From positions 1 through 59,137 of IMG/VR virus record IMGVR_UViG_3300030102_005755: DNA of 59,137 nt, one strand, 5' to 3'. Shown piece by piece: positions 4,296 through 24,740 of this stretch. Position 1 is the stretch's first letter, and the number at the start of each line of letters is the position of its first letter. The position numbers and the translations under genes were made by a program. Source of the DNA: a virus. Taxonomy: Duplodnaviria > Caudoviricetes. The notes beneath the pieces are model-generated. The model ran no database searches. It was given only the letters and a program-made list of their open reading frames with translations, and was not told the origin of the DNA.

Positions 4296-4309
4296 TGTAT
4301 TAAATTTTG

Positions 4310-4383
4310 TACGCCCGATAGGATTCGAACCTATGACCCACAGCTTAGAAGGCTGTTGCTCTATCCAACTGAGCTACGAGCGC
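4310..4383 (-). tRNA. tRNA-Arg (anticodon UCU), no encoded CCA
   Basis: GCGCTCG TA GCTC AGTTGGATA GAGC A ACAGC CT-TCT-AA GCTGT GGGTC ATAGG TTCGAAT CCTAT CGGGCGT A; complete cloverleaf. Confidence 0.95.
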
Positions 4384-4384
4384 A

Positions 4385-4461
4385 TGGTTGGGGCGACGGG
4401 ATTTGAACCCGTGACTTCCTGTGTATAAGACAGACGCTCTAACCAACTGAACTACGCCCCA
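4385..4461 (-). tRNA. tRNA-Ile (anticodon UAU) with encoded CCA
   Basis: TGGGGCG TA GTTC AGTTGGTTA GAGC G TCTGT CT-TAT-AC ACAGG AAGTC ACGGG TTCAAAT CCCGT CGCCCCA A CCA; 1 nt from the tRNA-Arg 5' end. Confidence 0.92.
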
Positions 4462-9984: not shown

Positions 9985-10808
9985 TATTCAGGGAGTTTTG
10001 CTCCGTACATAGCCTTCAAAGCATGAAGGAGTCTAAGGTCTTTGTTTTTATCCTGACCACGCTTCAAGATCTTCATGCCTTTCGCCCCGCCAGGGATACC
10101 AGCGCCAGCTAAAAGCTGCATCAAGGTATTGACGTCAATGTTTTGAGATGTGTCTGTACCATATCCCGCAAGCTGACCCTGGGCAATTTGATCCATCTGT
10201 GAACCTCCAGAGATGTCTGGGTACTCAAGCTCGCTAGTCGATGGTGTAGCACCGATCTCTTGCATACCACCCATAAGGCCTCTCTCATCCATGTTCTGAG
10301 ATGGGGCATCTTCTCCAGCAATCATTTTACCCAAGAGCTTTGTCCCGCCCTTCAGGGCTTTCCTCTTAACTGCGTCTGTCTTCAGAGCTTTGATGCCTTG
10401 GCCTACAGCGCTGCCGAGCTTAGAGCTGCCAAGATTGCTGGCAAGATTGCTGGCAAGACCAGACAAACCACCTCCGCTTTGAACAGCACTAACCAAAGCA
10501 GGGGCTCCAAAAGCCGCACCAGCAGCCAATGCACCTGCACCAATGCCTTTCTTGATTCTATCTCGCTGGACTTTCTTCAAGTACTCCAAGCGATCAGCAC
10601 TGCGTGGCCCTTCTTCGTTTAGCTTCCCCTGTCTATCCAACTTCTTGAGGTAACGCTTCTCTTTTCTCAAAGCTGAACCCTTGGTTCTTAAGAAGCCTTG
10701 ATTGCCAAATGCTGTGTTGATCCCAGAACCTGCCCCCTCCATGTCGGAGAACTTGTCCTGAGAGTTGCTGAAGAACCCTCCCTTGCGGTATTCTTTGTTG
10801 ATCTTCAT
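9984..10808 (-). CDS. Putative internal virion/ejection protein
   Basis: Gly/Ala-rich hydrophobic segment IGAGALAAGAAFGAPALVSAV; YRKGG, AKGMK and MYGAK motifs. Confidence 0.6.
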   Translation of the reverse strand: MKINKEYRKGGFFSNSQDKFSDMEGAGSGINTAFGNQGFLRTKGSALRKEKRYLKKLDRQGKLNEEGPRSADRLEYLKKVQRDRIKKGIGAGALAAGAAFGAPALVSAVQSGGGLSGLASNLASNLGSSKLGSAVGQGIKALKTDAVKRKALKGGTKLLGKMIAGEDAPSQNMDERGLMGGMQEIGATPSTSELEYPDISGGSQMDQIAQGQLAGYGTDTSQNIDVNTLMQLLAGAGIPGGAKGMKILKRGQDKNKDLRLLHALKAMYGAKLPE

Positions 10809-10813
10809 GGCTA

Positions 10814-10821
10814 CAAATATA
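10814..10821 (-). promoter_or_regulatory. -7 element TATATTTG, 5 nt before ATG 10808
   Basis: TAnnTTTG consensus. Confidence 0.6.
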
Positions 10822-10971
10822 GCCAGTTATTTTTTAGTACTCAAGCCCAGATCAAGGCTCTTTTTTTCAGGACACAACATCCCTCGCGCCATAAACAATA
10901 AAGGATTCCCTTTGTGCAAACAAAGAAAAATGCTTTGACTGCTTAAAAAGTTCTGAATCGCTTCAGTGCTG

Positions 10972-11002
10972 TAAAGGTATAAACAAAAATTTCAAAAGTC
11001 AA
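10972..11002 (-). promoter_or_regulatory. Putative host-type promoter TTGACT-N17-TACCTTTA
   Basis: Same spacing as plus-strand candidates at 18688-18718 and 22970-23000. Confidence 0.45.
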
Positions 11003-11590
11003 CCGTCAACAGTTACTTGAATACAAGGACTCCAACAGATTGCAAACCAGCAGGTTAAGAATTTTTGGTGTGAATTTGTCTCTGAAGTCAATCTAGCAAG
11101 ATCACCGCAAAAATGAGGGGAGTTCAATGCACCGTGGGGATTATATGTAGTAGCGGACGCCAGCGTGTACGACCAGAATCGGTTTGGCAGACCCCACCCC
11201 CCAACTATCTTCGATAGTTGCGCTGTAACTTTCAGCTTTTTACCTACTGACTTTCAGTCAGTTAGGTATGGATGGCTCCCCCACTGCGTGAGACTGCAGG
11301 GTGTAACGTGCTGTCTGTCAGGGTGGGACAATCCCCAACCTCAATCTCTACTTCAGCACCAACACCCCTTAACGGGGTGACACTGAAACGGCAAACCGAA
11401 GCCCTTCACGTAGCCTAACCTACGGAGATAACTGGTTATCTCTCAGCGTGTTAGGAGACTTCAGCTCCACTACAACTACCAAGGGTAGTGGTAGTGAGAA
11501 GCCGTCAGGGTAGAGGGTTGAGAGAAGAGAGAGAGGAGTCTACGACTCTCTCTCCTCTCAACACTCCTAGGCTCCGAGAGTCGGTCTAGG

Positions 11591-11601
11591 TCAAACTTCA
11601 A
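11591..11601 (+). promoter_or_regulatory. Early leader motif TCAAACTTCAA, copy 1
   Basis: Begins 22 nt before ATG 11613; other copies at 12329, 12635, 13482 and 14657. Confidence 0.7.
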
Positions 11602-11612
11602 AATCATCTCCG

Positions 11613-12137
11613 ATGAACAACTTCAACTTCTCTGACTGCCGTAAGGCAGTGAACCAAGCCACCTTCCGTCCAACCGCAGAGCGCAAAGCCGCCGCAGCGA
11701 AGCTGCTTCAGGAGGCCTTGGACTTCGTCACTAACCTCGAAGAGGTTAAGGAGACCAAGCCGAAAGCCAAGAAGCGTCGTCGTAAGACGACGAAGCGGAC
11801 ACCTTCACAGAAGGTGGCAGATGCTCAAGACAGGGCGGCTCTCAAGACCAACGAAGTTGGGCCAATCAAGCCCAAGTCGGCGAAGCCGAAAGCGTCGGTC
11901 AAGGCGGCGGCCAAGGCGGCGCAGGCCGTGAGTGAGCACACTGGGGCAGCGGCTAAAGCCGCCAAGAAAGCCGAACTCAAGGCCGAAGCGGTTCAACCAA
12001 AGGTTGAGGACAACCGCCTGACTTCTCTGGAAGAGAAGATTGAGATGCTGACCAAGTTGGTGGCCTTGCAGATGCAGGGTGAGCCTACCCACACGATCGA
12101 TACTATCAGTATCGATGAACTCCCTTTCCAACTCTAA
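11613..12137 (+). CDS. First early gene: Lys/Ala-rich histone-H1-like protein with acidic DELPF tail
   Basis: KPKAKKRRRK, KAAAKAA and AAKAAKKA repeats; short coiled coil; ends IDELPFQL. Confidence 0.8.
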   Translation: MNNFNFSDCRKAVNQATFRPTAERKAAAAKLLQEALDFVTNLEEVKETKPKAKKRRRKTTKRTPSQKVADAQDRAALKTNEVGPIKPKSAKPKASVKAAAKAAQAVSEHTGAAAKAAKKAELKAEAVQPKVEDNRLTSLEEKIEMLTKLVALQMQGEPTHTIDTISIDELPFQL

Positions 12138-12147
12138 TTCATCGAAG

Positions 12148-12240
12148 ATGACAATCCTTCTCCAACTCTTCATGCTCTGCGTGTACTCCACGCTCTCCGT
12201 GCTCTGCGTAGCCGCCTTGGTGAACTTGTTCACCGACTGA
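12148..12240 (+). CDS. 30-aa hydrophobic membrane peptide
   Basis: MTILLQLFMLCVYSTLSVLCVAALVNLFTD; C-ending codon bias like neighbouring genes. Confidence 0.55.
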   Translation: MTILLQLFMLCVYSTLSVLCVAALVNLFTD

Positions 12241-12258
12241 CCGACCGAACTCAACCCC

Positions 12259-12321
12259 TGTTAGTATCTCTTAGTACACACTCTCTTCATTTATGAAGAG
12301 TGTGTACTTAGAGAGACAACA
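12259..12321 (+). repeat. Long imperfect inverted repeat preceding leader copy 2
   Basis: AGTACACACTCTCTTCA / TGAAGAGTGTGTACT arms with a 2-nt bulge, plus outer TCTCT/AGAGA and TGTT/AACA pairs. Confidence 0.8.
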
Positions 12322-12349
12322 CTCAATGTCAAACTTCAATTCAACCATC

Positions 12350-12490
12350 ATGCATCCTTCTATGCGCCGTCAGCTCATCGCTGACCTCCTGACCTCTTCG
12401 TTCGACTTCGACCTCCTCACATCTACGGATGAATGGGAGCAGCTCACCTGCGACGAGCAGATGACATTGGCTGACCTCATCAACTGCTAA
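12350..12490 (+). CDS. Small acidic hypothetical protein (46 aa)
   Basis: MHPSMRRQLIADLL...; ATG 21 nt after the start of the leader motif. Confidence 0.6.
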   Translation: MHPSMRRQLIADLLTSSFDFDLLTSTDEWEQLTCDEQMTLADLINC

Positions 12491-12501
12491 ACCCAAAAAT
12501 C

Positions 12502-12603
12502 ATGTCAACGAAATTTCGCATAAAAGACGGGAACAGCTACGTCTGGCCCTGTTGGCTCCATGACTCTTACGTCAAGACGCTCAGGTACACTGACGAGTCC
12601 TGA
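12502..12603 (+). CDS. 33-aa ORF whose 3' end overlaps the hammerhead core
   Basis: MSTKFRIKDGNSYVWPCWLHDSYVKTLRYTDES; stop codon lies in ribozyme loop II. Confidence 0.45.
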   Translation: MSTKFRIKDGNSYVWPCWLHDSYVKTLRYTDES

Positions 12604-12636
12604 ATGGACGAAACACCCCCTTGGGGTGTCTGTATC
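12584..12636 (+). ncRNA. Type I hammerhead ribozyme
   Basis: Stem I GGUACA/UGUAUC; core CUGAcGA; stem II GUCC-UGAAU-GGAC; GAAA; stem III ACACCCC-CUU-GGGGUGU; GUC cleavage triplet with cut after 12630. All core nucleotides present. Confidence 0.92.
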
Positions 12637-12656
12637 AAACTTCAATTTTCTTTACG

Positions 12657-13079
12657 ATGGCATCTTTGCAATCACTCTACATGGCCCTGCAAGCAGGCGA
12701 GGGCTTCAGCGTAAACGCTGACCAAAAGACCTTTGCTGGACGTGGCTACGCAGTCGGTGGAACCGAGGTTCCGTCTCTCGTCGTTGAAAACGACAGCCTG
12801 TCCTTCAATCAATTCTCTGCCGCTATGCAGAACATGGCATCGAAGATGCTTGACCCAGACACCCAAGTGCTCGGCGGTTGGGTGGATGCAGGGATGGCCT
12901 TCATCGAGGTTTCCGACGTGGTGCGTAGCAAGTACGTCGCATTGGAACTTGCCGAGTACCGAAACGAAAGGGCCATCTACGACTTCAACACGCAGTCAGA
13001 GGTTCGCAACCCTAGCTTCATCAGCGGCACAGCCACCACCAAGGTCAATGTCTCACGTAAGCAAACACAGGAAGCATGA
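12657..13079 (+). CDS. Conserved phage early protein
   Basis: GFSV...GYAVG...LGGWVD....IEVS...A..LA..RNERAIYDF motif; start reassigned to ATG 12657, 22 nt after the start of the leader motif. Confidence 0.75.
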   Translation: MASLQSLYMALQAGEGFSVNADQKTFAGRGYAVGGTEVPSLVVENDSLSFNQFSAAMQNMASKMLDPDTQVLGGWVDAGMAFIEVSDVVRSKYVALELAEYRNERAIYDFNTQSEVRNPSFISGTATTKVNVSRKQTQEA

Positions 13080-13315
13080 ACATTTGGGAACGTTACCCAT
13101 CCAAGGGAACTCACTACGAGTGGAACCAAGCCAAGGCCAAGTTGCACACCTTCGAGTATTATGTCCACTACGGAAGCGACCGAGACGACTGGAAAGGCCC
13201 ACACAGGGTCAAGGCACTCACGAAAGAGGAGGCCATCCGAAGTGCCCAAAGGTACTTCGCAGACACGGGGTGGACCGTGTGGAACAAGACATTCAAAGTC
13301 GTTGATAATCAGTAA
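13076..13315 (+). CDS. Hypothetical protein
   Basis: ATGA overlap with the upstream gene. Confidence 0.7.
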   Translation: MNIWERYPSKGTHYEWNQAKAKLHTFEYYVHYGSDRDDWKGPHRVKALTKEEAIRSAQRYFADTGWTVWNKTFKVVDNQ

Positions 13316-13330
13316 CTTAACACCATTCAC

Positions 13331-13414
13331 ATGAAGAAGAACTTCAACATCGTGTTCGTGACGTTCGTTGCGTACCTGGCTACCTTGGTAGCAATCTACA
13401 TCCTCAACCTCTAG
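13331..13414 (+). CDS. 27-aa hydrophobic membrane peptide
   Basis: MKKNFNIVFVTFVAYLATLVAIYILNL. Confidence 0.55.
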   Translation: MKKNFNIVFVTFVAYLATLVAIYILNL

Positions 13415-13477
13415 AGAGTATCAGTATATATATCTCTCTGAACGTAGTGAAGAGAGTATATATATACGATACCTCTC
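13414..13477 (+). repeat. Long imperfect inverted repeat preceding leader copy 4
   Basis: GAGAGTATC-A-GTATATATATCTCTCT / loop GAACGTAGTGA / AGAGAG-T-ATATATATAC-GATAC-CTCTC; overlaps and is followed by an 18-nt match (CTCAATGTCAAACTTCAA) to 12322-12339. Confidence 0.8.
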
Positions 13478-13503
13478 AATGTCAAACTTCAAACTCCAAA
13501 CCG

Positions 13504-13767
13504 ATGGACAACATCAAAGACATGACGAACGACGAGTTCATCAACCACCTCATGACGGGGTACAGCAAGCACGGAGCACTCGTGCACTTGGTAGTCCTTG
13601 ACTGCCTTCAGCGTGGCCTCGACCACTACATATCACACAAGGATAAAATCCTTGAAGAGCACAACAATCCCCGTGAGGATGGGCGTATCTCACTCATCAA
13701 CATGAAGGCATGGGTTGAGTGCTGTGAAGAAACACAACAACGAATCAACGAAAAGTACAATGGATGA
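13504..13767 (+). CDS. Hypothetical protein
   Basis: MDNIKDMTNDEFINHLM...; start placed 22 nt after the start of the leader motif. Confidence 0.7.
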   Translation: MDNIKDMTNDEFINHLMTGYSKHGALVHLVVLDCLQRGLDHYISHKDKILEEHNNPREDGRISLINMKAWVECCEETQQRINEKYNG

Positions 13768-13939
13768 CCAAATCAGAAACTACGACACCTGCCACAAGTG
13801 TGGTGGAGTCGGCATCTTCCTCAACTCGGACCACGACGTCTCGGAATGGTACTACGACTACGAATGTGAAGATTGCCAAGCAACGTGGGACGTCACCTTT
13901 GAACTCAAACCCCTTGACCGAAACAACCATGACGACTAA
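13760..13939 (+). CDS. Zinc-ribbon protein
   Basis: CHKC...CEDC...W.VTF. Confidence 0.65.
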   Translation: MDDQIRNYDTCHKCGGVGIFLNSDHDVSEWYYDYECEDCQATWDVTFELKPLDRNNHDD

Positions 13940-14153
13940 CTTCCCCACCATCGGCTCTGCCGTGCTGTACCTCAACAGCCTCCACTACGGCGAGTTCCTC
14001 GATCGCCTGAACGTGGTCTCACGCCACGACCCTGAATGGATTCGAAACATCGCTGACATCATGATGGCGTTCGATTGGGAGAACGAGGATGAGAAGAAGC
14101 TGATGTTCAAGTGGTCTCTCAAAGAGAAATATGTAACGGCAGTAAACGCATGA
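13929..14153 (+). CDS. Hypothetical protein
   Basis: MTTNFPTIGSAVLYL...; coupled overlaps on both sides. Confidence 0.65.
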   Translation: MTTNFPTIGSAVLYLNSLHYGEFLDRLNVVSRHDPEWIRNIADIMMAFDWENEDEKKLMFKWSLKEKYVTAVNA

Positions 14154-14272
14154 GAGAACTAATCCGAACAACTCAAATCGACAAGGACTGCAAGGTGTGC
14201 AAGGGTGAGGGGTACGTCCCCGCCAAGCCACGCTACGAGATTTGTCCTAAATGCAAAAACAACAAGCAATGA
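14150..14272 (+). CDS. 40-aa DnaJ-type zinc-finger peptide
   Basis: MRELIRTTQIDKDCKVCKGEGYVPAKPRYEICPKCKNNKQ; ATGA overlaps on both sides. Confidence 0.6.
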   Translation: MRELIRTTQIDKDCKVCKGEGYVPAKPRYEICPKCKNNKQ

Positions 14273-14463
14273 ATATGTACGACAAAGCACTCAAAGCCCT
14301 CGAACGTGCGGGCTTCAGCCCCGACATGGTGGGGGCACCAGACGACCCCTGCATCTACGTCAATGTATGGACCGACGACATGGGAGAAGCACACGAGATG
14401 CGTCTGCACGACACCGAGATTGGTTGGTGGGCGAGCAAGTACGAGAAAGAATTGGTTAATTGA
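14269..14463 (+). CDS. Hypothetical protein
   Basis: MNMYDKALKALERAGF...EIGWWASKY; weakly similar to 15413..15634. Confidence 0.7.
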   Translation: MNMYDKALKALERAGFSPDMVGAPDDPCIYVNVWTDDMGEAHEMRLHDTEIGWWASKYEKELVN

Positions 14464-14474
14464 AGTTTGACCAC

Positions 14475-14520
14475 GAGGGGGTGACTACCTGAAACGTCAG
14501 GCCCTCCCCCTCACTTTTTT
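14475..14520 (+). terminator. Intrinsic terminator-like hairpin
   Basis: GAGGGGG...CCTGA-AACG-TCAGG...CCCCCTC followed by ACTTTTTT. Confidence 0.6.
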
Positions 14521-14521
14521 C

Positions 14522-14651
14522 AAGGGAGCGCAGTCGGTGCGTACATCCACGGAGATTGGTTCGGTGTCTCAGTACACTTGCAGACGTGCAAGTCGAACGA
14601 CATACGACAATTTCTACGGGTGGCAGTTGTGTTCGAATCCCAACCTCCCTT
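14522..14651 (+). ncRNA. tRNA-like structured RNA with extended anticodon arm
   Basis: Acceptor AAGGGAG/CTCCCTT; D-like arm CGCA-GTCGG-TGCG; long arm CATCC/GGGTG + GGAGATTG/CAATTTCT + GTTCG/CGAAC + ACTTGCA-GACG-TGCAAGT; T arm GTTGTG-TTCGAAT-CCCAAC. Confidence 0.7.
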
Positions 14652-14677
14652 CTATCACAAACTTCAATTCAATACCT

Positions 14678-15346
14678 ATGAAATACTATGCAGTAATCCA
14701 CGGTGTCTGCGGCCTGTACGAAGGCTACTCCGACACCACTTGTGACTGGTTCCCTACCGAGGAAGCCGCACAGAAACACGTCAAGCAATGCCTCGACACC
14801 TACCGAGAGGACGAGATGTGTGTCAACATTGACCACAGCGGAGACATGATGCACACCTTCGTCACCATGGACCGCGACCCTGACAACTATGCCGCTTGCG
14901 TCCCATCAGACATGGACCACGACGACTACGTTGCAGAGCATGGCGACGACGTAAGTGTCGAAGTGTTCCGAATCGTAGAGGTTGACAAGCCCTACCGCAG
15001 TGACACAACCGAGTCAGTGTGGCTGACATGGGACCAACAGGATTGCAGTGTGGCATGGGACTACTACCCCCTGTGTATGTCACTTGTTGCTCGTGTCTCC
15101 TCCGATGTGTTGGACACCACCAACGATGACTACCCAACGCAATCACTGCATAACCTTGCACAACTCGGTGAGTTCATCTCCGCTGTGTACTACCGCAAGG
15201 AAGCCTTCATCGACATCGACGACTACACCATGCACGCTTTCCGCATCCCCAAGAAGTTGGAGATGAGGTGTAACGAGTGCGGATATGTTGACGACGCAGT
15301 GGCTTCGCACTATGAAGAATGCTCTAAACTCAAGACAGATGCGTGA
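14678..15346 (+). CDS. Acidic hypothetical protein with C-terminal CxxC...H...C
   Basis: MKYYAVIHGVCG...; start placed after leader copy 5 (14657-14667). Confidence 0.75.
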   Translation: MKYYAVIHGVCGLYEGYSDTTCDWFPTEEAAQKHVKQCLDTYREDEMCVNIDHSGDMMHTFVTMDRDPDNYAACVPSDMDHDDYVAEHGDDVSVEVFRIVEVDKPYRSDTTESVWLTWDQQDCSVAWDYYPLCMSLVARVSSDVLDTTNDDYPTQSLHNLAQLGEFISAVYYRKEAFIDIDDYTMHAFRIPKKLEMRCNECGYVDDAVASHYEECSKLKTDA

Positions 15347-15416
15347 CCCCAAGACAGAGATTTGGGTTGACCCCGAAACAGGAATTTGGTATCAACAAGA
15401 AATTCAAGACAGATGA
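15339..15416 (+). CDS. 25-aa mini-ORF with internal repeat
   Basis: MRDPKTEIWVDPETGIWYQQEIQDR; coupled to both neighbours. Confidence 0.45.
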   Translation: MRDPKTEIWVDPETGIWYQQEIQDR

Positions 15417-15634
15417 TAAATAAATCCACACTACAAGATGCCCTCGATTGCTTCGAGCGATATGAAATCCCCGCTGAACTCTACCACAACGATTTGACCT
15501 ATAGAGATACCATCCTCGTCCAAACCATCAACCCAGACGTGTACGTTGAAATCTCCAAGCAAGAAATCATTTGGAGGGCAGACCAACACCTCGAACTATT
15601 AAAGCAAGAGAATGACGAAGAAAAAACTGCTTGA
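15413..15634 (+). CDS. Hypothetical protein
   Basis: MINKSTLQDALDCFER...EIIWRA. Confidence 0.65.
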   Translation: MINKSTLQDALDCFERYEIPAELYHNDLTYRDTILVQTINPDVYVEISKQEIIWRADQHLELLKQENDEEKTA

Positions 15635-15815
15635 CCTCCTGTCTGCATACCCTGACAATGCAGAGGTAGTAATCGAGGTGCATGACACCTCACTGAATGA
15701 AGACCTGTACGACTTCTACGTTGATGGGATATCATGGACTCGGTTCAACACCGACAACACATCAGAAGAAATGCACGAACTAAGGCTCAGCGCCATAAAT
15801 CACAATGAATCATGA
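15612..15815 (+). CDS. Hypothetical protein
   Basis: MTKKKLLDLLSAYPDNAEV N-terminus, a common phage motif. Confidence 0.7.
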   Translation: MTKKKLLDLLSAYPDNAEVVIEVHDTSLNEDLYDFYVDGISWTRFNTDNTSEEMHELRLSAINHNES

Positions 15816-16036
15816 CTATCGAATCACATACAGACCTCGACATCCGAGTGGCAGTCAGCGACTGCTTCAATGCCAACAGCCTTGACACCCACGTCAAGAG
15901 TGCATACCAACTGCTCGTCAAGTATCTACGCCAGACCCACGGGTTCACCCACGATCAGATTGACGAGGTAGTGGACCGCCTCGAAGAGCAGGTGGCAGAA
16001 CACATCATTGAAATTCACGAAGAACAGAACGCATGA
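15812..16036 (+). CDS. Hypothetical protein
   Basis: ATGA coupling on both sides. Confidence 0.7.
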   Translation: MTIESHTDLDIRVAVSDCFNANSLDTHVKSAYQLLVKYLRQTHGFTHDQIDEVVDRLEEQVAEHIIEIHEEQNA

Positions 16037-16272
16037 CAGCACAAGACATCAAGAACTACATCGAGGTAGACCTCGGTCAATCCCTGCGACACGACCCCGA
16101 CATGCTACTCGAAGCGACACAAGAAACCGCCGCCACCTTCGACCTTGGTGAGTGGAAGGTGTTGAGGTTCATGTTGGCCAACGAACCTGTTATGCACAGC
16201 CACAGCTATGGGTTCCATACCCGCTACGGCAGAGCTATCCGAGAACACTTCTCATTTATCTACAACGGATGA
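16033..16272 (+). CDS. Hypothetical protein
   Basis: ATGA coupling on both sides. Confidence 0.7.
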   Translation: MTAQDIKNYIEVDLGQSLRHDPDMLLEATQETAATFDLGEWKVLRFMLANEPVMHSHSYGFHTRYGRAIREHFSFIYNG

Positions 16273-16460
16273 AATTCAAGAAATACACAAAGAACCTAGT
16301 GCATGACGGCAAGACGGTGTACAGCTACGGCACACCAGTGGCACGAGTGGAGGGTGACATCCTCCGTCAGCTCGGCTATTGGTCCGTGACCACACAGAAG
16401 CACATCAACTATGCCGCCGACCAACTCGGTCTCAAACTTCACAAACCAGTCAACCCATGA
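16269..16460 (+). CDS. Conserved small phage protein
   Basis: VYSYGTPVA...WSVTTQKHIN motif; start reassigned to ATG 16269. Confidence 0.75.
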   Translation: MKFKKYTKNLVHDGKTVYSYGTPVARVEGDILRQLGYWSVTTQKHINYAADQLGLKLHKPVNP

Positions 16461-17260
16461 CATCAGTACAAGAAAACAAGAACGAACTCGAAGCCGCCGT
16501 GCGGTACTGCGAGTCAGCCATCAGCCGTGCCAAGGCAACCATCGAGTCGATGGAGTTCCGTCAGCAGGCGGCAAGCAAGGCATGGCATGAGCAGACAGGA
16601 CGTGAGAAAAAACTAGATGACGAGAACATCCACTTGCAAAAGGTCATAATTGACCTTGAGACATTTGTGGAGGAGTTGCGAGACGACAAGGTCAGGCTGA
16701 ACAGAGAGGTGGAAGGCCTCAAGGTTGAGAACACGAAGCTCAATGACCGCCTGATGATTTCAATGAAAGAGGTTGGGCAACTTCAGAGTGAAGTCGATGA
16801 GTTTGAGACAGCGCACAACAACATGAAGGTCTACGCCGACAAGCTACTCGACGACAACATCGAGCGCGAGGACAAGTGGGACGAAGCGCAGTCAGAGATT
16901 GCCACGCTCAAGGATGAGATTGCAGAGTTGTCCAAGGCATACAAGGACTCCACCCGCGAGGAGATTACCATGAAGAAAGCATGGCGTGAGCAACGGGAAC
17001 TCGTAGCCCTGCGTGACGACCAGATTGCTATGCTTGAGCGACGCCTCGCCAAGCACACAGGTGAGAAGACCTACCCCTTCAAAGAGGGAGACCTTTACTA
17101 CGTCCTCAATCAGCTCGACGGCACATGGATTGAGTCGGTCTGGGATGACGAGTCAGAGCGCCTGCACGACAGCACCGACTTCCCCGATCACCCACACAAG
17201 GTGTACTTCACGGTCGATCAGAAGAACGTGCTCGAAAAATTCAAACCCGAAGATGACTGA
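16457..17260 (+). CDS. Long coiled-coil protein with C-terminal YPFKEGD domain
   Basis: Heptad-rich stretch of about 200 aa; start MTSVQENK. Confidence 0.75.
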   Translation: MTSVQENKNELEAAVRYCESAISRAKATIESMEFRQQAASKAWHEQTGREKKLDDENIHLQKVIIDLETFVEELRDDKVRLNREVEGLKVENTKLNDRLMISMKEVGQLQSEVDEFETAHNNMKVYADKLLDDNIEREDKWDEAQSEIATLKDEIAELSKAYKDSTREEITMKKAWREQRELVALRDDQIAMLERRLAKHTGEKTYPFKEGDLYYVLNQLDGTWIESVWDDESERLHDSTDFPDHPHKVYFTVDQKNVLEKFKPEDD

Positions 17261-17441
17261 CGAATACTTGGACCGCAAGTGGGCAGAGATAGAAGCTCGC
17301 ATGAAACGATTCGAAGAGACCGCTTCCTCTCACGACAAGATGATGCTTGACTGCATGGTCCGTGACTGGGAAGCCAAGATGAAACTAAAACTACAGCAAC
17401 ATGAAACGATACAGAGTTCGCTTCCACCTCGCTCGTGGTGA
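17253..17441 (+). CDS. Hypothetical protein
   Basis: MTDEYLDRKWAEIEAR... Confidence 0.55.
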   Translation: MTDEYLDRKWAEIEARMKRFEETASSHDKMMLDCMVRDWEAKMKLKLQQHETIQSSLPPRSW

Positions 17442-17781
17442 CAACTACATGAAGTGGCAAGTGTTTGATAAACAGAACAATACGAAGGATTACTTCGACC
17501 CTGAGTCTAAGTCACTGTTCATGAAGAACTGTGAACTAGGCAATCACCCCACCACCGCAAAAAAAATATACAACGGGGACAACAAGACGGTGTGTGCATG
17601 GATATCTTGCGACGACTATCAGGTCTGGGAGAACGAGAGATTCACACTAAATGCAAGCGCTATGACCCACTACAAGTACAATCCCAAAAAGAATCCACAT
17701 TGGTTTACCGAAACTCACGACAACAGAGACGGCCTGAAGCTCGACACTATGATCACAAAAAACAGAGCAGTATATGGATAA
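17401..17781 (+). CDS. Conserved Bacteroidota-phage hypothetical protein
   Basis: YRVRFHLARG.NYMKWQV...NKTVCAWISC...YNPKKNPHW. Confidence 0.8.
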   Translation: MKRYRVRFHLARGDNYMKWQVFDKQNNTKDYFDPESKSLFMKNCELGNHPTTAKKIYNGDNKTVCAWISCDDYQVWENERFTLNASAMTHYKYNPKKNPHWFTETHDNRDGLKLDTMITKNRAVYG

Positions 17782-17938
17782 GTATATGCGATTCCTCAGC
17801 ATCATCAGCAAGGCTGAAAACAAAAGCAAGCGTCATCGACGCCGACTTATGGAGCGAGAACTAAAGAAATTGTATGGAGAACCAGAGCAAACTACAGAAG
17901 CAGAAGGAGATAATGCGCAACCTGGAGGCGTGGCTTGA
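17774..17938 (+). CDS. Possible 54-aa basic protein
   Basis: MDKYMRFLSIISKAENKSKRHRRRLMERELKKL...; bridges the gap between neighbours. Confidence 0.4.
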   Translation: MDKYMRFLSIISKAENKSKRHRRRLMERELKKLYGEPEQTTEAEGDNAQPGGVA

Positions 17939-18278
17939 GGATGGAAGCAATCCACACCAGACAGCACTCGGCTTCATCAAGGCAGACATCAAAGAACGAG
18001 GCTTCGAGGGGTGGCTAAACATGGACGCAGAGATGGTGACCTTTTCTTTTTACGACACCACAGAAGAGATGTCGAATGAGATGATGAACGACCTGGCTAC
18101 CATGCTAAAGCAAGAGGACATGCTAGATGACCTGGGCGTTGAGCAGACCATGCGTATTGATCAGCATGAGCTGCTAGTCGGATTCAGGAAGGGCATGTTA
18201 GACATATTCAAATCACTAGTAATTTATTTCGATGCAAAACAACAAGCAGAACACCAGTACGAAGATTGTAGGGGTTGA
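17874..18278 (+). CDS. Hypothetical protein
   Basis: 134-aa ORF; start uncertain. Confidence 0.7.
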   Translation: MENQSKLQKQKEIMRNLEAWLEDGSNPHQTALGFIKADIKERGFEGWLNMDAEMVTFSFYDTTEEMSNEMMNDLATMLKQEDMLDDLGVEQTMRIDQHELLVGFRKGMLDIFKSLVIYFDAKQQAEHQYEDCRG

Positions 18279-18738
18279 AATCCCACAGATTCTAGACAAC
18301 ATCCGAGTTGCCTATGAGTACGAGATGGGTGAGTACATCACCCCAGAGAGCAGGAAGCGCCACAAGGTAGAACTTCGTGCCGCCCTAGTCAATGCCGCCA
18401 GACCCTATGCTACATGCAGACAGCTGGCTACCATGGTAAGTAAGAGCGACCACTCAAGCAGCATCCACAGCGCCAAGCTTCATGAGGTCTACTACAACAG
18501 CTCCCCTCAGTACCGATTCAATTACGGGAAAGCCTTGGAGGTTGTAGAAAAGTTTGCTCGTCGTCATCAGCTGTTACCCAGAAGCAATGGGCAATACGGA
18601 GGTGCCGTAACGATAGAGTCAGAGATCGACACGATCAATCTCACGATACTTTCGTTGCAGAAAAGACGAGATGCTTTGTTTGAAAAGTTGCCAGAAAGGC
18701 GCCGAAAGGCTATCTTAGCAAACGAGTTGCCGCACTAA
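18232..18738 (+). CDS. DnaA C-terminal-like helix-turn-helix protein
   Basis: SRKRHKVELR...QLATMVSKSDHSSSIHS resembles the DnaA domain IV RDHTTV helix. Confidence 0.6.
   Translation: MQNNKQNTSTKIVGVEIPQILDNIRVAYEYEMGEYITPESRKRHKVELRAALVNAARPYATCRQLATMVSKSDHSSSIHSAKLHEVYYNSSPQYRFNYGKALEVVEKFARRHQLLPRSNGQYGGAVTIESEIDTINLTILSLQKRRDALFEKLPERRRKAILANELPH
18688..18718 (+). promoter_or_regulatory. Putative middle promoter TTGCCA-N17-TATCTTAG
   Basis: Near-consensus Bacteroidota promoter ahead of the recombination/replication genes. Confidence 0.4.
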
Positions 18739-18745
18739 ACGCACA

Positions 18746-18934
18746 ATGAACCCACTAAGGAAGCTCACACATGAACTCAGAGTCATCTGGAACGAAGACA
18801 TCCTGTACAGGATTGAGAACTGGTACTTCTGGAAGTTCACATACCCCAAACATTACAAAGGCAAGAAGTGTCTCAGGTGCGGTCGCTCATTCAGTGGGTG
18901 CGATTGCATCGACGGACAAGCAATGCACAGTTAA
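18746..18934 (+). CDS. Small Cys-rich hypothetical protein
   Basis: CLRCG...CDC. Confidence 0.55.
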   Translation: MNPLRKLTHELRVIWNEDILYRIENWYFWKFTYPKHYKGKKCLRCGRSFSGCDCIDGQAMHS

Positions 18935-18952
18935 TTCAAATCAATTTAATTC

Positions 18953-19507
18953 ATGTCTAATTACAAGTTCAAGACCACGAACATCCGTGGCAAGCAGTAC
19001 GTTGAAGTCAACGAACGCATCAAGTTTCTCCGACAGGAGGATCATTACAAGGACTGGACTATTGCAACTGAGTTCCCCGTTCTTGACGGTGAAGTTGCAG
19101 TGTGCAAGGCCACAGTTGCAGACACCGATGGTCGAGTCATCGCCACTGGTCATGCACACGAGGAACGTTCAGGTAGCAACATCAACAAGACAAGCTTCGT
19201 GGAGAACTGCGAAACGTCAGCCGTTGGTCGCGCCCTTGCAATGCTTGGAATCGGAATCGACACTTCTATTGCGTCGTCTAATGAAGTCCAAGAAGCAATC
19301 GCAAAGCAACAGGCAATGGTGGACGACCCCAAAGTCCAGAAGCTCAGCAAAGCTCTTGATGCTCCAGTGGAGAACATCATGGACAAAGCGGTCGGGTACA
19401 TCAAGTCCCAGACTGACAAGCGCAAAGCCTTTGACTCCATCACCAAGAAGTACGGTGAACAGCTGACAGAGAAGCAACTAGCAGGACTCAAGAAGTTCGT
19501 GCGATGA
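18953..19507 (+). CDS. Sak/Rad52-like single-strand annealing protein
   Basis: GKQYVEVNER...ATGHAHE...INKTSFVENCETSAVGRAL..LGIG...IAS..EV. Confidence 0.75.
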   Translation: MSNYKFKTTNIRGKQYVEVNERIKFLRQEDHYKDWTIATEFPVLDGEVAVCKATVADTDGRVIATGHAHEERSGSNINKTSFVENCETSAVGRALAMLGIGIDTSIASSNEVQEAIAKQQAMVDDPKVQKLSKALDAPVENIMDKAVGYIKSQTDKRKAFDSITKKYGEQLTEKQLAGLKKFVR

Positions 19508-19788
19508 AGCTAAGCGTCAACACCACTGGTGTTTTGATGCCGCTCGAAGGCAGAGGCAAAGAGAACAAGTTGATTCCTTGGTCTATGATCAAGAAGGAAT
19601 CTGTTGTCCCTGCTGTCAAGCGCTGCACAAACGACAAGCACGGCCTAGAAATTTACATGGTCCGCAAGATTGTCAATGGTGAGGAGCACAACTCGATTCA
19701 CCTCTCGGAGAGAGAGGCGTTGAAGGCTGTAGACCTTCACCTTATCAACAACGGGAAAGAACCCAAGTATATACTGAAGCGCAAATGA
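19504..19788 (+). CDS. Hypothetical protein (possible DNA-binding)
   Basis: SEREALKAVDLHLINNGKEP C-terminus; ATGA coupling. Confidence 0.65.
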   Translation: MKLSVNTTGVLMPLEGRGKENKLIPWSMIKKESVVPAVKRCTNDKHGLEIYMVRKIVNGEEHNSIHLSEREALKAVDLHLINNGKEPKYILKRK

Positions 19789-20555
19789 GCATGAGACAAC
19801 AGCTGCAAGAGAGCGTGGGCAAACCCCACCTCTCCTACTCCTCCCTTAAGTATGCACTCGGAGACATGCGTCTCTGGGAGATGTACATGAGGGGACAGCT
19901 CAAGAAGGAATCGGAAGCCTTGCGCTTCGGATCTCTGTATGACTTGCTCTTATTCGAACCAGAAAAATTTCAAGATGTCTACTACACTCTCGATGATACT
20001 AGCATCGTCGCTTCTATTGGCGGCGCTAATCCTAGGTCTACAAAACGATACAAGGAATGGAAAGCAGAAGCAGCGCAAGTTGCGGAGAACGCGGACAAAA
20101 TCCTGGCAAGCGAAGAGGATGTCAAGAAAGCGCATCAGATGATCCAACGCTTGGATGACTGCGGCCTGTACGACAAACGTTTTAAGGGCGGCAAGTTCCA
20201 AGTAGAGTTCAACGTTGACCTTGATGGTGTACCCCTCAAGGGATTCCTCGACTGCCTTCAGGATGGATTCATTGTGGACTCCAAGTCATCACGCTCGATC
20301 GACAAGTTCAGATACGACGTGAACAGCTGGAGCTACGACATCCAGGCGTACATCTACACCAAGGTCTTCAACATCAAAGACTTCTACTGGGTGGTACAAG
20401 AGAAGGCTTACCCCTTCTATCCAGCCGACGTGAAGTGTACAGATGAGACGTTGTTCCGAGGAGAGATGAAGTTCCACCAAGCCATTGAAAACATCCAAGC
20501 CTATCTCAATGGAGACAAGCAAACAGACCAACACTACGCTGAATTTGTGGTGTAA
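19785..20555 (+). CDS. RecE/exonuclease VIII-like PD-(D/E)XK nuclease
   Basis: LSYSSLK...FGS...LKGFLD...IVDSKSS...YDIQAYIY. Confidence 0.85.
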   Translation: MSMRQQLQESVGKPHLSYSSLKYALGDMRLWEMYMRGQLKKESEALRFGSLYDLLLFEPEKFQDVYYTLDDTSIVASIGGANPRSTKRYKEWKAEAAQVAENADKILASEEDVKKAHQMIQRLDDCGLYDKRFKGGKFQVEFNVDLDGVPLKGFLDCLQDGFIVDSKSSRSIDKFRYDVNSWSYDIQAYIYTKVFNIKDFYWVVQEKAYPFYPADVKCTDETLFRGEMKFHQAIENIQAYLNGDKQTDQHYAEFVV

Positions 20556-20618
20556 GATTTTAATTTATGCGACAGCATTTTACATTTTTGATAACCTTTT
20601 TTACAATTTTATTTTATC

Positions 20619-20918
20619 ATGAGCGATAAGCAATATGACTCAGTACTCGTAGGGTACGCAGAAGATCCTCGCCACAACGACGAGGGAGAATTGATGTCTT
20701 GGGCGGTCCGTTTCAAGGACACCGAACTCAAGGACATGATTGAGAAGTACGCCACACGGCGTAACGCAGAAGGACAGGGCGGCAACGTCTACGTTACCAT
20801 GTTCATGTCCAAGAATGGCAAGGCTTGCTGCCGTGTCTTCGATCCTAACAGCCAGGCTGCCAAGGAACGTCGTGCAGCCAAGGCAGCACAGCAAGAGACA
20901 AGTGACCTCCCGTTCTAA
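20619..20918 (+). CDS. Putative single-stranded DNA-binding protein
   Basis: Beta-rich 99 aa ending SDLPF; lies between the exonuclease and primase. Confidence 0.6.
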   Translation: MSDKQYDSVLVGYAEDPRHNDEGELMSWAVRFKDTELKDMIEKYATRRNAEGQGGNVYVTMFMSKNGKACCRVFDPNSQAAKERRAAKAAQQETSDLPF

Positions 20919-20940
20919 CGGAGGAGCACCTATCTACTAC

Positions 20941-21186
20941 ATGACCGCTCGTGTCGCCTTCAAAAAAAAGAAGGTTGTACACGAGCGTGTTGTGTGGATA
21001 GTATCCGTCTTTGAAGATCCTAACGACATACGCAACTGCGATCGCAAGACCATGGACAGGCTTGAGACAGAGCTGTACAAGGGTAGCAAAGCAGACAAAC
21101 ACATTATTGTTAGAGAGATTCTAGACAAGAAGCTTATCTCTTACTCTAACCTGTCGATAGATGAACACAAAAAACAATGCAAGTAA
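20941..21186 (+). CDS. Hypothetical protein
   Basis: MTARVAFKKKKVVHERVVWIVS... Confidence 0.55.
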   Translation: MTARVAFKKKKVVHERVVWIVSVFEDPNDIRNCDRKTMDRLETELYKGSKADKHIIVREILDKKLISYSNLSIDEHKKQCK

Positions 21187-22973
21187 CCATATTCAAGAAT
21201 GTCTTCGACAAGAAGAGCCCACACCACATCCCACTACAAACAGCACTGAAGCGTATTCAAGAGGGCAAGTCAAGCGCTCTAGTATCCGAGGTCAGAGATG
21301 GTGACAAGACAAAAAAGCAGAAGCTCCCTGTTGTATGTTTCAGCGGGGAGTTTTCGTCTAGGTCTGACGATGCTTTGTTTGAGCACTCTGGTTTTATTGT
21401 GCTCGACTTTGATCACGTTGACGTTGAGGCAACCAAGCGGGCTCTTGCGACGGATGACTTCATCCACTCGTGCTGGACGTCTCCTAGTGGAAATGGAGTC
21501 AAGGCTCTCGTCAAGATTACAAACCCTGAGAGACACCGCGACCACTTCAGGGCGCTCATCAAATACTTCGAGAGAACACACGGGCTTGAGCTAGACGAGT
21601 CAGGCATCAACGAATCTCGTGCATGCTTTGAGTCTTACGACCCAGACATCATCATCAAGGATGAGTCAAAGAAGTTCGGCCACTTCACAACGGAGATGGC
21701 TGAGGCGCAGGTCCCAACCAATGAAGCCTACGACCACACAGACTACATGAAGCTCAACCTTGCCGCCCGCATGATTCGGCAGGCCAAGGATGGGGAGAAG
21801 TGGATCACACTCAACCGAGCAGCTATTCTGTGCGGAGGATATGTAGCTGCTGGTCGCATGGAAGAAGAGGAAGTTATCCGAATCCTTTTTCGTGAGATCT
21901 GCAAGCGCGATGTAGACAACGAGGATCACGCACGACAAACCATCGTGGCTGGTATCGAGAAGGGCAAGCAGATGCCCATCAGAGACATCATCGACGAAGA
22001 GAAGTCAGCCAAAAGGGAGATGCTGCTGAACGATGGCGACATGTCATTCATCTCCTCTGACGATGAGGACTTCAGATGGATTGACGACTACGCCATGAAC
22101 AAGATCCAGATTGGATTGGACACAGGTGACCCCAGGCTTGACGAGTACTTCAGGTACAAGAAAGAGTTTGTCATTGTCAACGGTCACTCCAACGTGGGCA
22201 AGACCACGACAATGCTGTACATGATTACGAACTCAGCGATCCGTCATGGATGGAAGTGGGTGATATACTCTTCGGAGAACCGTACCGCATCCGTCAAGAT
22301 GAACCTCATGCAGTTTGCCATGGACAGAAAGGTGGGGGACATGTCATACGCACAGCGAAAGAGGGCTTACAAGTGGGTGCAAGAACACTTCACCATCATC
22401 AACAACAATCAGATATACACCTACAGTGACATCATCCTGTTCATGGAGAAGGTCATGCGTCAGCAACATGTAGATGCAATCTTTGTTGACCCGTACAACA
22501 GCCTGCGTCTAGACATGAAGAACACCAGCATCGGTGTCCACGACTACCACTACGAGGCCGCGTCAGAGTTCTTGACGTTCAGCAAGTCTAACGACATCGC
22601 AGTGTGGTTGAACATGCACGCCGTAACAGAAGCTCAACGACGCAAAGGTGACGACGGCCTACCTGTTGCCCCCTATGCAGAGGACACAGAGGGTGGTGGC
22701 AAGTTCGTCAACAGAGCCGACTGCTTCATGACAATCCACAGGAAGGTGCAGGCCCCAGACACAGCGATCAAGCGGATGAGCGAGATACATGTGCGCAAGG
22801 TTCGAGAGGTAGAGACGGGTGGTCAGCCCACTCCGCTAGACGATCCGTACTGCCTCACCATGAATATTTCCAACACTGGATTCACCAACATGTTGGGGCA
22901 AAGGTCTATGTTCCAGCCAATTAAACTCAGTGAGGGAGAGCAGATGCCACTCAATCAAGAATTTCTGAGTTGA
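21177..22973 (+). CDS. Primase-helicase (BT4734/VirE-N type primase + DnaB/SF4-like helicase)
   Basis: KQKLPVVCFSGEF, HSGFIVLDFDH, SPSGNGVK, RACFESYDP; Walker A GHSNVGKT, FVDPYN, NRAD...HR. Confidence 0.88.
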   Translation: MQVTIFKNVFDKKSPHHIPLQTALKRIQEGKSSALVSEVRDGDKTKKQKLPVVCFSGEFSSRSDDALFEHSGFIVLDFDHVDVEATKRALATDDFIHSCWTSPSGNGVKALVKITNPERHRDHFRALIKYFERTHGLELDESGINESRACFESYDPDIIIKDESKKFGHFTTEMAEAQVPTNEAYDHTDYMKLNLAARMIRQAKDGEKWITLNRAAILCGGYVAAGRMEEEEVIRILFREICKRDVDNEDHARQTIVAGIEKGKQMPIRDIIDEEKSAKREMLLNDGDMSFISSDDEDFRWIDDYAMNKIQIGLDTGDPRLDEYFRYKKEFVIVNGHSNVGKTTTMLYMITNSAIRHGWKWVIYSSENRTASVKMNLMQFAMDRKVGDMSYAQRKRAYKWVQEHFTIINNNQIYTYSDIILFMEKVMRQQHVDAIFVDPYNSLRLDMKNTSIGVHDYHYEAASEFLTFSKSNDIAVWLNMHAVTEAQRRKGDDGLPVAPYAEDTEGGGKFVNRADCFMTIHRKVQAPDTAIKRMSEIHVRKVREVETGGQPTPLDDPYCLTMNISNTGFTNMLGQRSMFQPIKLSEGEQMPLNQEFLS

Positions 22974-23000
22974 TTTTCCAAAAATCCTTTGGTACCTTCA
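22970..23000 (+). promoter_or_regulatory. Putative promoter TTGATT-N17-TACCTTCA, 4 nt before ATG 23005
   Basis: Near-consensus match and spacing. Confidence 0.4.
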
Positions 23001-23004
23001 GTAA

Positions 23005-23463
23005 ATGAAGAAACGTACAAGGACTCCTAAGAGAAAAACATCCAAAAAAAAATGCTTGGGAAGGTACGCGAGCTCGATTGAAAAGTATTGTGCTGACCAG
23101 TTGAAAGAATACGGGCTGGCTTTTGACTATGAGGAACACACCTTCGAGCTGACCGAAAGGTTTAAGTTCCCCAACAAGTACTTTAAGATGACTGCAAAGG
23201 GTAAGGAGATGGCGGACCGAACAGGGTCCGTCGTTCTCCCTATCACATACAAGCCAGACTTTGTGGGGAGAGACCACAACTGGATCATAGAAACAAAGGG
23301 ATACCTCCCATCTCACCATGACTTTCCAATGCGTTGGAAGCTTTTTCTAAAGCATTTAGTTGGAAAGCAATCAGATACGATTGTATTTTTAGCCAAGAAC
23401 AGCGCTCAAGTTGATGCTGCTGTTCAGCACATCTTACAATCAATAGAGAATGGAGATATCTAA
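23005..23463 (+). CDS. T7 endonuclease I-like Holliday junction resolvase
   Basis: YASSIE...FDYE...YKPDF...IIETKG. Confidence 0.8.
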   Translation: MKKRTRTPKRKTSKKKCLGRYASSIEKYCADQLKEYGLAFDYEEHTFELTERFKFPNKYFKMTAKGKEMADRTGSVVLPITYKPDFVGRDHNWIIETKGYLPSHHDFPMRWKLFLKHLVGKQSDTIVFLAKNSAQVDAAVQHILQSIENGDI

Positions 23464-23665
23464 GCTGAGCTGGTACTACCATCAAGCTTGCGAGGAAATT
23501 CATCAGATCGTGGACGATCTGTATGAGGCCTTACACGAAGAGACTGGGGTGCCTAAAGAAGAATTGTTTCTTGTAGAGGAGGCAATGGAAGGCGTCAAGA
23601 TGGCCATCTATCAAGAGTTAGATCTCATAAAAGCCTCTGTTCATGAGCACGAATCTGAGCAGTAA
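23450..23665 (+). CDS. Hypothetical protein
   Basis: 71-aa helical ORF, coupled to neighbours. Confidence 0.65.
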   Translation: MEISKLSWYYHQACEEIHQIVDDLYEALHEETGVPKEELFLVEEAMEGVKMAIYQELDLIKASVHEHESEQ

Positions 23666-24152
23666 TAGGCGAGCTTATAGCTCAGCCACTGGCAGGGTAG
23701 CCGAGGTTAGGTTTGTGAGGGCAGCTAGAAACAAAGGCCTTCTCGTGACCAAGTCCAAGCACACTGAAGACATTCACGAACACATCGACTACTGGTTAGC
23801 TATGTCTGGAGAAGGTCAGAGATGGGGCGTGGATGTAAAGGGAAACAACCTGCCAGATGAGATCTGGGTGGAGTTCAAGAATGTAAACGGGAAGAAGGGG
23901 TGGCTGTATGGTGGCGCAAACATCATCGCATTTGACATGCCAGAAGAAGGCGGGTTCTCGATCGTTGATCGACAGGAGCTCGCCTTTTTTTGTGAAAAAC
24001 ATGTACGCAATGAGTTCGTCGATCACAAGAGAGATGCCTACCTAAAAAAGTACACACGAAAAGATAGAGAGGATGTCATCTCTATACTTAAGTTGCACGA
24101 TATCAAGAACTTAATGTCTTACAGAGTCTGGGAATACGACCAGAGATATTGA
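23643..24152 (+). CDS. PD-(D/E)XK-like nuclease-fold protein
   Basis: AE..F...DIHEHIDY...VDVKG...IWVEFKNVNG..GWLYG. Confidence 0.65.
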   Translation: MSTNLSSNRRAYSSATGRVAEVRFVRAARNKGLLVTKSKHTEDIHEHIDYWLAMSGEGQRWGVDVKGNNLPDEIWVEFKNVNGKKGWLYGGANIIAFDMPEEGGFSIVDRQELAFFCEKHVRNEFVDHKRDAYLKKYTRKDREDVISILKLHDIKNLMSYRVWEYDQRY

Positions 24153-24168
24153 GTATCTTTATCGGTCC

Positions 24169-24737: not shown

Positions 24738-24740
24738 TGA

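Follow-up and report, generated by a model that had tools for sequence, protein, structure and literature searches.

What does a self-cleaving ribozyme motif do between two small genes of a bacteriophage, and is it a ribozyme at all? We addressed these questions for a hammerhead-like element in the window, the whole 59,137-nt stretch of DNA analysed here, which is an entire linear IMG/VR virus record (97% complete by CheckV). The minus strand carries portal, large terminase and virion proteins. A plus strand block at about 11.6–24 kb encodes small ORFs without assigned function, a PD-(D/E)XK protein and a primase/helicase, and because of this gene content, set against the virion genes of the minus strand, we presume that it comprises early genes. 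The best cultured-phage matches by large terminase are Flavobacterium phages with names beginning vB_FspP_elemo and Cellulophaga phages (41–48% identity), and one phage protein (26058–28205, minus strand) ends in a type IX secretion C-terminal sorting domain (Pfam 27.4 bits against a cut-off of 27). Because of the terminase relatives and the sorting domain, a Bacteroidota (Flavobacteriia) host is likely. The phage is thus probably an uncultivated, podovirus-like, marine-type Flavobacteriia phage of about 59 kb.

The hammerhead lies within the presumed early block, with the following features.

12350–12490, plus strand: upstream gene, 46 aa, with its own leader motif and hairpin; co-transcription presumed
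12502–12603, plus strand: 33-aa ORF, a doubtful gene, in a window-specific 93-nt spacer; its TGA (12601–12603) lies within loop II
12584–12636, plus strand: type I hammerhead ribozyme, whole motif, sequence GGTACACTGACGAGTCCTGAATGGACGAAACACCCCCTTGGGGTGTCTGTATC; sole descriptor match and minimum-free-energy fold
12584–12589 with 12631–12636, plus strand: stem I, 6 bp including one G-U
12590–12596, plus strand: conserved core CUGACGA (C3 to A9)
12597–12609, plus strand: stem-loop II, 12597–12600 paired with 12606–12609 (4 bp), loop UGAAU at 12601–12605
12610–12613, plus strand: core GAAA (G12, A13, A14, A15.1), of which GAA is 12610–12612
12613–12629, plus strand: stem-loop III, 7 bp including A15.1-U16.1, loop CUU
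12630–12631, plus strand: predicted cleavage site between C17 (12630) and U1.1 (12631), placed by the hammerhead consensus
12631–12656, plus strand: 26-nt leader that would be left on the downstream RNA, with the motif TCAAACTTCAAT at 12635–12646 and ATG at 12657
12657–13079, plus strand: downstream gene, 140 aa, no assigned function (a weak phrog_17808 match only; no Pfam match)

A sequence-only reading of this DNA had described an intact type I hammerhead between two plus strand genes, with a full core and three closed stems, and this description holds (stems of 6, 4 and 7 bp). The topology is that of type I, with stem I open and stems II and III capped by loops. The minimum-free-energy fold of the 53-mer is exactly the three-stem hammerhead (−19.0 kcal/mol). 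A descriptor scan of both strands of the 59-kb window returned this one site. When stems were allowed to be loose (at least 4, 3 and 3 bp), 5 of 300 and 27 of 1500 dinucleotide shuffles contained any match; with stems of at least 5, 4 and 5 bp, none of 1500 did. Because the site is the only one in the window and no shuffle carried comparable stems, chance origin is excluded. A loose core-only pattern was uninformative as evidence in the window (8 matches against 15.6 expected).

A search with the Rfam hammerhead models, which the sequence-only reading had proposed, divides by standard: the site is matched at the level of E-values by Hammerhead_1 (Rfam accession RF00163, 23.2 bits, E 0.0019 in 301 nt and 0.09 when 14.2 kb, 10800–25000, are searched), and it falls below the gathering cut-off of 34. 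The E-value scan of 10800–25000 found no ribozyme class besides the hammerhead, and at gathering thresholds Rfam finds two tRNAs in the window and nothing else. A gathering threshold is a curated score rather than a biological feature. Scores under the Rfam cut-offs, together with a fold z-score of only −1.88 for the 53-mer alone, are what a chance or inactive look-alike would predict; the absence of comparable stems in all 1500 shuffles and the covariation in relatives described below make such a look-alike hardly credible.

Folding in context calls for some care. With 60 nt of upstream sequence included, the nearest-neighbour probability of stem I is 0–0.63 across all 19 members of the family described below and 0.09 in the window, where a competing helix (12570–12574 with 12591–12595) is predicted to sequester part of the core. 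The nearest-neighbour model leaves out tertiary and core interactions and co-transcriptional order, and its low stem I probability is a caution, not a refutation of activity.

Family members were gathered with a 3'-half-plus-leader pattern (GAAAC, GUC, six free bases and AAACTTCAA), with a generic core pattern and, for locus L002, through the downstream protein. The 3'-half-plus-leader scan of the collection matched at least 117 stretches, roughly the chance expectation by our own estimate, and 15 of the 117 listed stretches contain a complete hammerhead. These 15, with the window, L002 and L049, provide a 19-member set that places ribozymes in the window and 17 other viral loci. All 19 aligned members are complete hammerheads joined to the leader. 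L002 is the closest relative found via the downstream protein (83% identity); it carries the hammerhead in the same position, with two stem II pairs altered on both sides relative to the window.

We identified two-sided, compensatory changes in 8 of the 17 base pairs of the ribozyme-only alignment of 17 distinct relatives, in which 99.3% of cells are paired. None of 500 shuffles reached this level of covariation, and no slid register came close. Three of the six stem I pairs covary (100% of cells paired). In stem II, G10.1-C11.1 is invariant (17 of 17) and the remaining three pairs covary; in stem III, A15.1-U16.1 is invariant (17 of 17), two pairs covary and 98.3% of cells are paired. The core CUGACGA is invariant in all 19 aligned members save N7 (C or U), as is GAAA without exception. 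Because the descriptor used for selecting members required a degree of pairing, there is some circularity in the paired-cell percentages, which does not extend to the two-sided changes. When the flanks are kept in the alignment, RNAalifold likewise finds each of the three stems. A covariance model made from these sequences (R1) finds 12584–12636 as the only strong match in the window (80.9 bits, filters off), and with it each of five related, near-complete genomes yields one or two hammerhead copies. Taken as sequence evidence, these results confirm the site as a genuine, evolutionarily conserved type I hammerhead for which self-cleavage is predicted.

Conservation extends beyond the core. Stem lengths of 6 and 4 bp, the U...U of loop II (U-NNN-U in 34 of 35 unique members), an A before stem I and an A run after it are all conserved, and this frame of stem lengths, loop II U...U and flanking A's holds even in four members with different downstream sequence. 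The loop II U...U and the flanking A's are candidate tertiary-contact elements. A stem I–loop II contact, which fast cleavage at low Mg2+ requires, could not be identified in the 19-member and 35-member comparisons, where no covariation was available.

In L049, about 75 nt upstream of a leader at 4414 (plus strand), we observed by eye a sequence resembling a hammerhead 3' half (GTGTC/TATGTC before the leader); its core reads CTGACGC, GAAA is missing, and it is possibly a hammerhead copy in decay. Genome contigs scanned with the 3'-half-plus-leader pattern gave at least 120 stretches from many phyla; among the matches listed there was no complete hammerhead with leader and no prophage or host, and three minimal-threshold hammerhead parses proved unrelated.

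The ribozyme type itself is already known in phages. Phage intergenic hammerheads, and tandem hammerheads that cleave polycistronic RNAs, are described in the part of PMC3088659 cited here. Like the RF00163 type I hammerheads of bacteria and phages (Perreault et al. 2011, PMC3088659, same part), ours has the consensus core, an open stem I, capped stems II and III and a long helix III, and it lies between genes of a presumed polycistronic unit of a phage. It differs in its score (23.2 bits against the cut-off of 34), in the very uniform geometry of the family (6-bp stem I, 4-bp stem II, 5-nt U-NNN-U loop) and in having no internal loop in stem I, so that the usual loop-loop contact is not evident. 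The hammerhead of haloviruses HF1 and HF2 (HHphage) likewise lies a few nt before a start codon, at the first gene of an early polycistronic transcript: it is 13 nt before the early gene, with a mapped 5' end at most 3 nt from the cut, according to the cited part of PMC3088659. HHphage is a core variant from archaeal viruses, as that part has it, whereas the core here is canonical, the host is probably of the Bacteroidota and the cut would be coupled to a repeated leader motif.

Fungal and plant RNA viruses also have type I hammerheads ahead of ORFs, and these have recently been linked to the formation of subgenomic RNAs and to translation, as the portion of PMC13725137 used here sets out. These share with ours the type I layout, a long helix III, a position just before ORFs and no obvious loop-loop contacts. 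They cleave in vivo to give subgenomic RNAs, whereas cleavage is predicted here from sequence; moreover, they belong to eukaryotic RNA viruses with a proposed role in cap-independent translation (PMC13725137, same portion), and ours to a DNA phage of bacteria.

RAGATH-1 hammerheads (RF03152) also have the type I layout, and, as in that class, many of our relatives carry a small hairpin that precedes stem I by a few nt. Membership was rejected on scores of 25.9 bits (window) and 33.5 bits (L002) against a cut-off of 56.3 and on stem II. Stem II of RAGATH-1 hammerheads forms a pseudoknot, and in the Rfam consensus it is a single pair; here it is a regular, covarying 4-bp helix.

What the ribozyme does is best approached from its position. 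We identified a leader motif common to the phage group, UCAAACUUCAA, about 20 nt before AUG, and the hammerhead is nearly always found just 5' of it. The 3' strand of stem I continues directly into the motif, reading TCAAACTTCAA(T/A). The same leader precedes many genes in relatives and is common to dozens of related viral contigs; in most copies the AUG follows AAACUUCAA by 19–21 nt. The window contains these copies of the motif, along with other structures at their 5' side.

11591–11602, 12329–12340, 12635–12646, 13482–13493 and 14657–14668, plus strand: leader motif copies with at most one mismatch
11519–11590, 12264–12317 and 13425–13481, plus strand: long hairpins of about 20–30 pairs, rich in CTCTC/GAGAG, ending 6–20 nt before the leader motif
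12264–12317, plus strand: the hairpin before the leader of gene 12350, in the equivalent slot, with 21-nt arms that are 90% complementary
14522–14652, plus strand: tRNA-like cloverleaf ending 6 nt before the leader of gene 14678
L183:1212–1275 (minus strand) and L169:10470–10690 (plus strand): tRNA-like elements in relatives, where arrays of 2–3 occur

Each of the five motif copies lies 21–22 nt before an ATG (11613, 12350, 12657, 13504 and 14678, all starts of consecutive plus strand genes). One further plus strand match with at most one mismatch occurs at 45361, within a minus strand gene, and allowing up to two mismatches gives 17 matches against a shuffle mean of 8.1. Read directly, none of the five window leaders contains a Shine-Dalgarno-like purine run. 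In relatives (alignment A2 columns 90–104; for example L028, L061 and L124), the start codon mostly lies within a small hairpin, CATC-TAC-GATG, which shows some compensatory changes there and is largely absent from the window's leader.

The hammerhead therefore occupies one fixed position relative to leader and start codon. The sequence-only reading had placed the cut after 12630, with a 26-nt leader carrying the repeated motif left on gene 12657; the coordinates bear this out, the cleavage itself being predicted. A similar placement may be general. We identified 135 other type I hammerheads in viral loci fetched by the generic core pattern (L003–L234), and an ORF of at least 50 aa starts 10–40 nt after the cut in 67 of them (50%), as against 14% when 3060 positions are drawn at random from these loci. 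The distance from cut to ORF start peaks at 19–33 nt, and viral type I hammerheads may thus generally be placed 10–40 nt before an ORF.

Our preferred reading, and on balance the probable one, is that the element is a functional type I hammerhead whose cut on the 3' side of C12630 parts one cistron from the next, so that gene 12657 acquires the standard leader, beginning with a 5'-OH. The hammerhead would be transcribed within a message that also bears the 46-aa gene 12350–12490. Once 12636 had been synthesised, the RNA would fold into the three-stem junction and cleave itself between C12630 and U12631. The upstream RNA would then end in a compact ribozyme with a 2',3'-cyclic phosphate, and the downstream RNA would begin with a 5'-OH, four bases before the leader UCAAACUUCAA and 26 nt before AUG 12657. 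The cut would uncouple the two cistrons, and gene 12657 would gain a short, unstructured, Shine-Dalgarno-free leader like those of its sibling genes. Cleavage, co-transcription with the upstream gene and a benefit to stability or translation are the steps that we infer. Reviews treat hammerhead function as unresolved and mention possible processing of polycistronic mRNAs (PMC6765202, in the part cited here).

The same cleavage could serve another beneficiary: it might provide a protected, structured 3' end for the RNA of the 46-aa gene, or it might lower expression of gene 12657 through decay of the 5'-OH product, as with glmS. Type I topology leaves the whole ribozyme on the upstream fragment, as the fold implies, and the upstream gene family accompanies the ribozyme as regularly (11 of 19) as the downstream family does (10 of 12). 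Moreover, the 5'-OH product of the glmS ribozyme is degraded by RNase J1 in Bacillus subtilis (PMC3328962, in the part relied on here). Any protection by a 5'-OH against decay, as suggested in the sequence-only reading, would thus depend on the host, since the same end can be destabilising where RNase J acts. We found no RNase J match in four of four Flavobacteriales genomes (possibly incomplete, and from an inferred host group) and a match in 13 of 14 control genomes, which is weak evidence that a 5'-OH end would be tolerated in a Flavobacteriales host. The register of the ribozyme with the downstream leader and AUG is also fixed, and the ribozyme precedes other gene families as well. Against these observations, we regard another beneficiary as unlikely.

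A regulated switch was the further proposal of the sequence-only reading, in which ribosomes on the 33-aa ORF gate ribozyme folding and UGAA of loop II pairs with UUCA of the leader. The ORF does stop inside loop II, as had been noted, although this loop has five nucleotides (UGAAU) and not four. A helix upstream, inside the ORF, is predicted to be able to sequester part of the core in the window, and in 7 of 19 members an A→G change at the fourth loop II position still allows a G-U pair to the leader. The remaining evidence runs the other way. First, the 33-aa ORF and its 93-nt spacer are window-specific: tblastn and blastn against the 240 further loci that were fetched gave no significant match (best tblastn E 0.13), and L002 lacks both. 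Second, the UGAA/UUCA pairing shows no two-sided change; all four pairs are kept in only 10 of 19 members and 16 of 35 unique members, being broken in 9 and 19, and the leader is invariant. Finally, all members share the low stem I probability in context, and it is no peculiarity of the window spacer. The switch is, on this record, very improbable.

The C-terminus of the 33-aa ORF (RYTDES followed by the stop) is the ribozyme read in frame, and the same tail occurs in an unrelated ORF of L210. Ribosomes may influence the element in a more general manner. In 11 of 19 members, the upstream gene encodes a 46–57-aa protein that stops 8–12 nt before stem I, and in two members the upstream stop codon is the UGA of the ribozyme core. 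With this general spacing, stem I would in most members be covered briefly by a ribosome that is terminating, an effect that does not come from the 33-aa ORF.

We identified the hammerhead-leader module before at least 6 unrelated gene families, in 1–3 copies per locus. This might indicate a selfish or relic cassette that spreads with the leader and plays no role in the expression of its flanking genes; selfish elements often carry self-cleaving ribozymes, as the cited part of PMC3088659 notes. The core is nonetheless intact and the stems are compensated in every copy seen, with one possibly decayed copy (L049) recognised by eye, and the register of ribozyme to AUG is fixed. We consider a cassette of this kind improbable.

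Cleavage that gives gene 12657 its standard leader, our preferred reading, draws further support from the slot 5' of the leader, which different structures share. We examined 68 leader-preceded ORFs from the window and the 17 hammerhead loci, a sample biased towards hammerheads by the choice of loci. The slot holds a hammerhead in 16 cases, a tRNA-like T-arm/acceptor in 3 and otherwise mostly a long conserved hairpin; 44 of the 68 have a fold of −20 kcal/mol or lower, and 31 have at least 9 perfect pairs. A less biased census drew on 44 loci taken from the downstream-protein alignment, independently of the ribozyme. The covariance model places a hammerhead ending at most 60 nt before the predicted start in 23 of these loci. 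Inspected by eye, the other 21 include 6 with hairpin and leader (three of them identical contigs) and 3 with a tRNA-like T-arm/acceptor and leader; the remaining 12 are mostly distant homologues with a guessed start codon. Orthologues of one family thus have different elements, and the same slot carries different structures in different phages.

The slot hairpins fall into several sequence classes with pairing preserved across contigs. Their long arms differ in sequence yet keep pairing, which speaks for folding of the nucleic acid and against a protein site in duplex form. An identification as plus strand RNA is not favoured by G-U asymmetry (20 of 1130 pairs are G-U on the plus strand, against 93 of 1247 on the complementary strand), a test confounded by the A+C-rich plus strand. 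The hairpins may be promoters rather than RNA processing sites, and the argument from slot equivalence is weakened for that reason. Either role would have a similar consequence for the hammerhead: the ribozyme-preceded gene has no hairpin of its own, and its RNA, after the predicted cut, would begin four bases ahead of the leader.

The tRNA-like cloverleaf of the window has a 7-bp acceptor stem, a D-like arm and a T-arm with GTTCGAATCC, and lacks a normal anticodon loop. In the window copy, an extra hairpin of about 70 nt stands at the position that a short arm occupies in relatives. Neither ARAGORN nor Rfam accepts these elements as tRNAs, with the exception of one 'tRNA-???' with a two-base anticodon in L069. 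Several relatives have a hairpin following a tRNA-like array, so tRNA-like fold and hairpin are not strict alternatives.

RNase III processing hairpins lie between the early genes of T7, and tRNAs punctuate mitochondrial transcripts. Both are structures at gene boundaries that define mRNA ends, and here hairpins and tRNA-like folds share the slot of the hammerhead. Unlike in those systems, processing here is predicted, and the hairpins could be promoters. It is possible, if doubtful, that presumed immediate-early transcripts in this group of Flavobacteriia-type podoviruses are punctuated by three interchangeable devices 5' of UCAAACUUCAA: a hammerhead that cleaves itself, a tRNA-like cloverleaf cut by RNase P/Z and a long hairpin cut by RNase III. 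Each would define the same kind of mRNA 5' end, and the leader would be a 5'-terminal, Shine-Dalgarno-independent translation signal. If so, the hammerhead would be a natural counterpart of the synthetic 5'-UTR insulator.

Whatever the role of the hairpins, the family is an unusually clean test case for hammerhead function, with one fixed register to a conserved leader and start codon. Orthologous genes with a hairpin or tRNA-like fold in the hammerhead slot provide natural controls. If cleavage sets the translated 5' end in a clade largely without Shine-Dalgarno initiation, hammerheads would have a concrete job in phage gene expression; if true, this would also show that a good many viral hammerheads escape detection at the Rfam gathering threshold. 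The new part, as far as we found, is the reusable hammerhead-leader module and the alternation in its slot. We did not find this module, or its alternation with hairpins and tRNA-like folds, in print, and the supplementary alignments of PMC3088659 may include family members. Our literature search found nothing on ribozymes in Flavobacterium phages and nothing that brings together hammerhead, tRNA-like element and RNase III for phages.

Several further observations concern the phage as a whole. Approximately 800 nt without a convincing ORF (10809–11612) separate the divergent minus and plus strand gene blocks and are a candidate control or origin region. Scans of 10800–16500 for sigma-70 promoters and intrinsic terminators gave counts at the shuffle level. 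In blastn searches of 50,697 phage records, the early region, the hammerhead with leader and the hairpin with leader found nothing relevant (one 32-nt chance match in a crAss-like phage). Four marine metatranscriptome-labelled sequencing runs contain 5–8% of the sampled words, all as contigs of related strains. Two other minus strand features were identified.

28742–36748, minus strand: 2668-aa protein with an LPD38 'polyvalent protein' domain, the only domain found
4309–4461, minus strand: adjacent tRNA pair, Arg(TCT) and Ile(TAT)

A PDB sequence search with the 2668-aa virion protein returned no match; its C-terminal 600–930 residues match the C-terminal ends of PHROG profiles of 2800–3900 residues without assigned function. 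Relatives L028 and L143 have the same tRNA pair.
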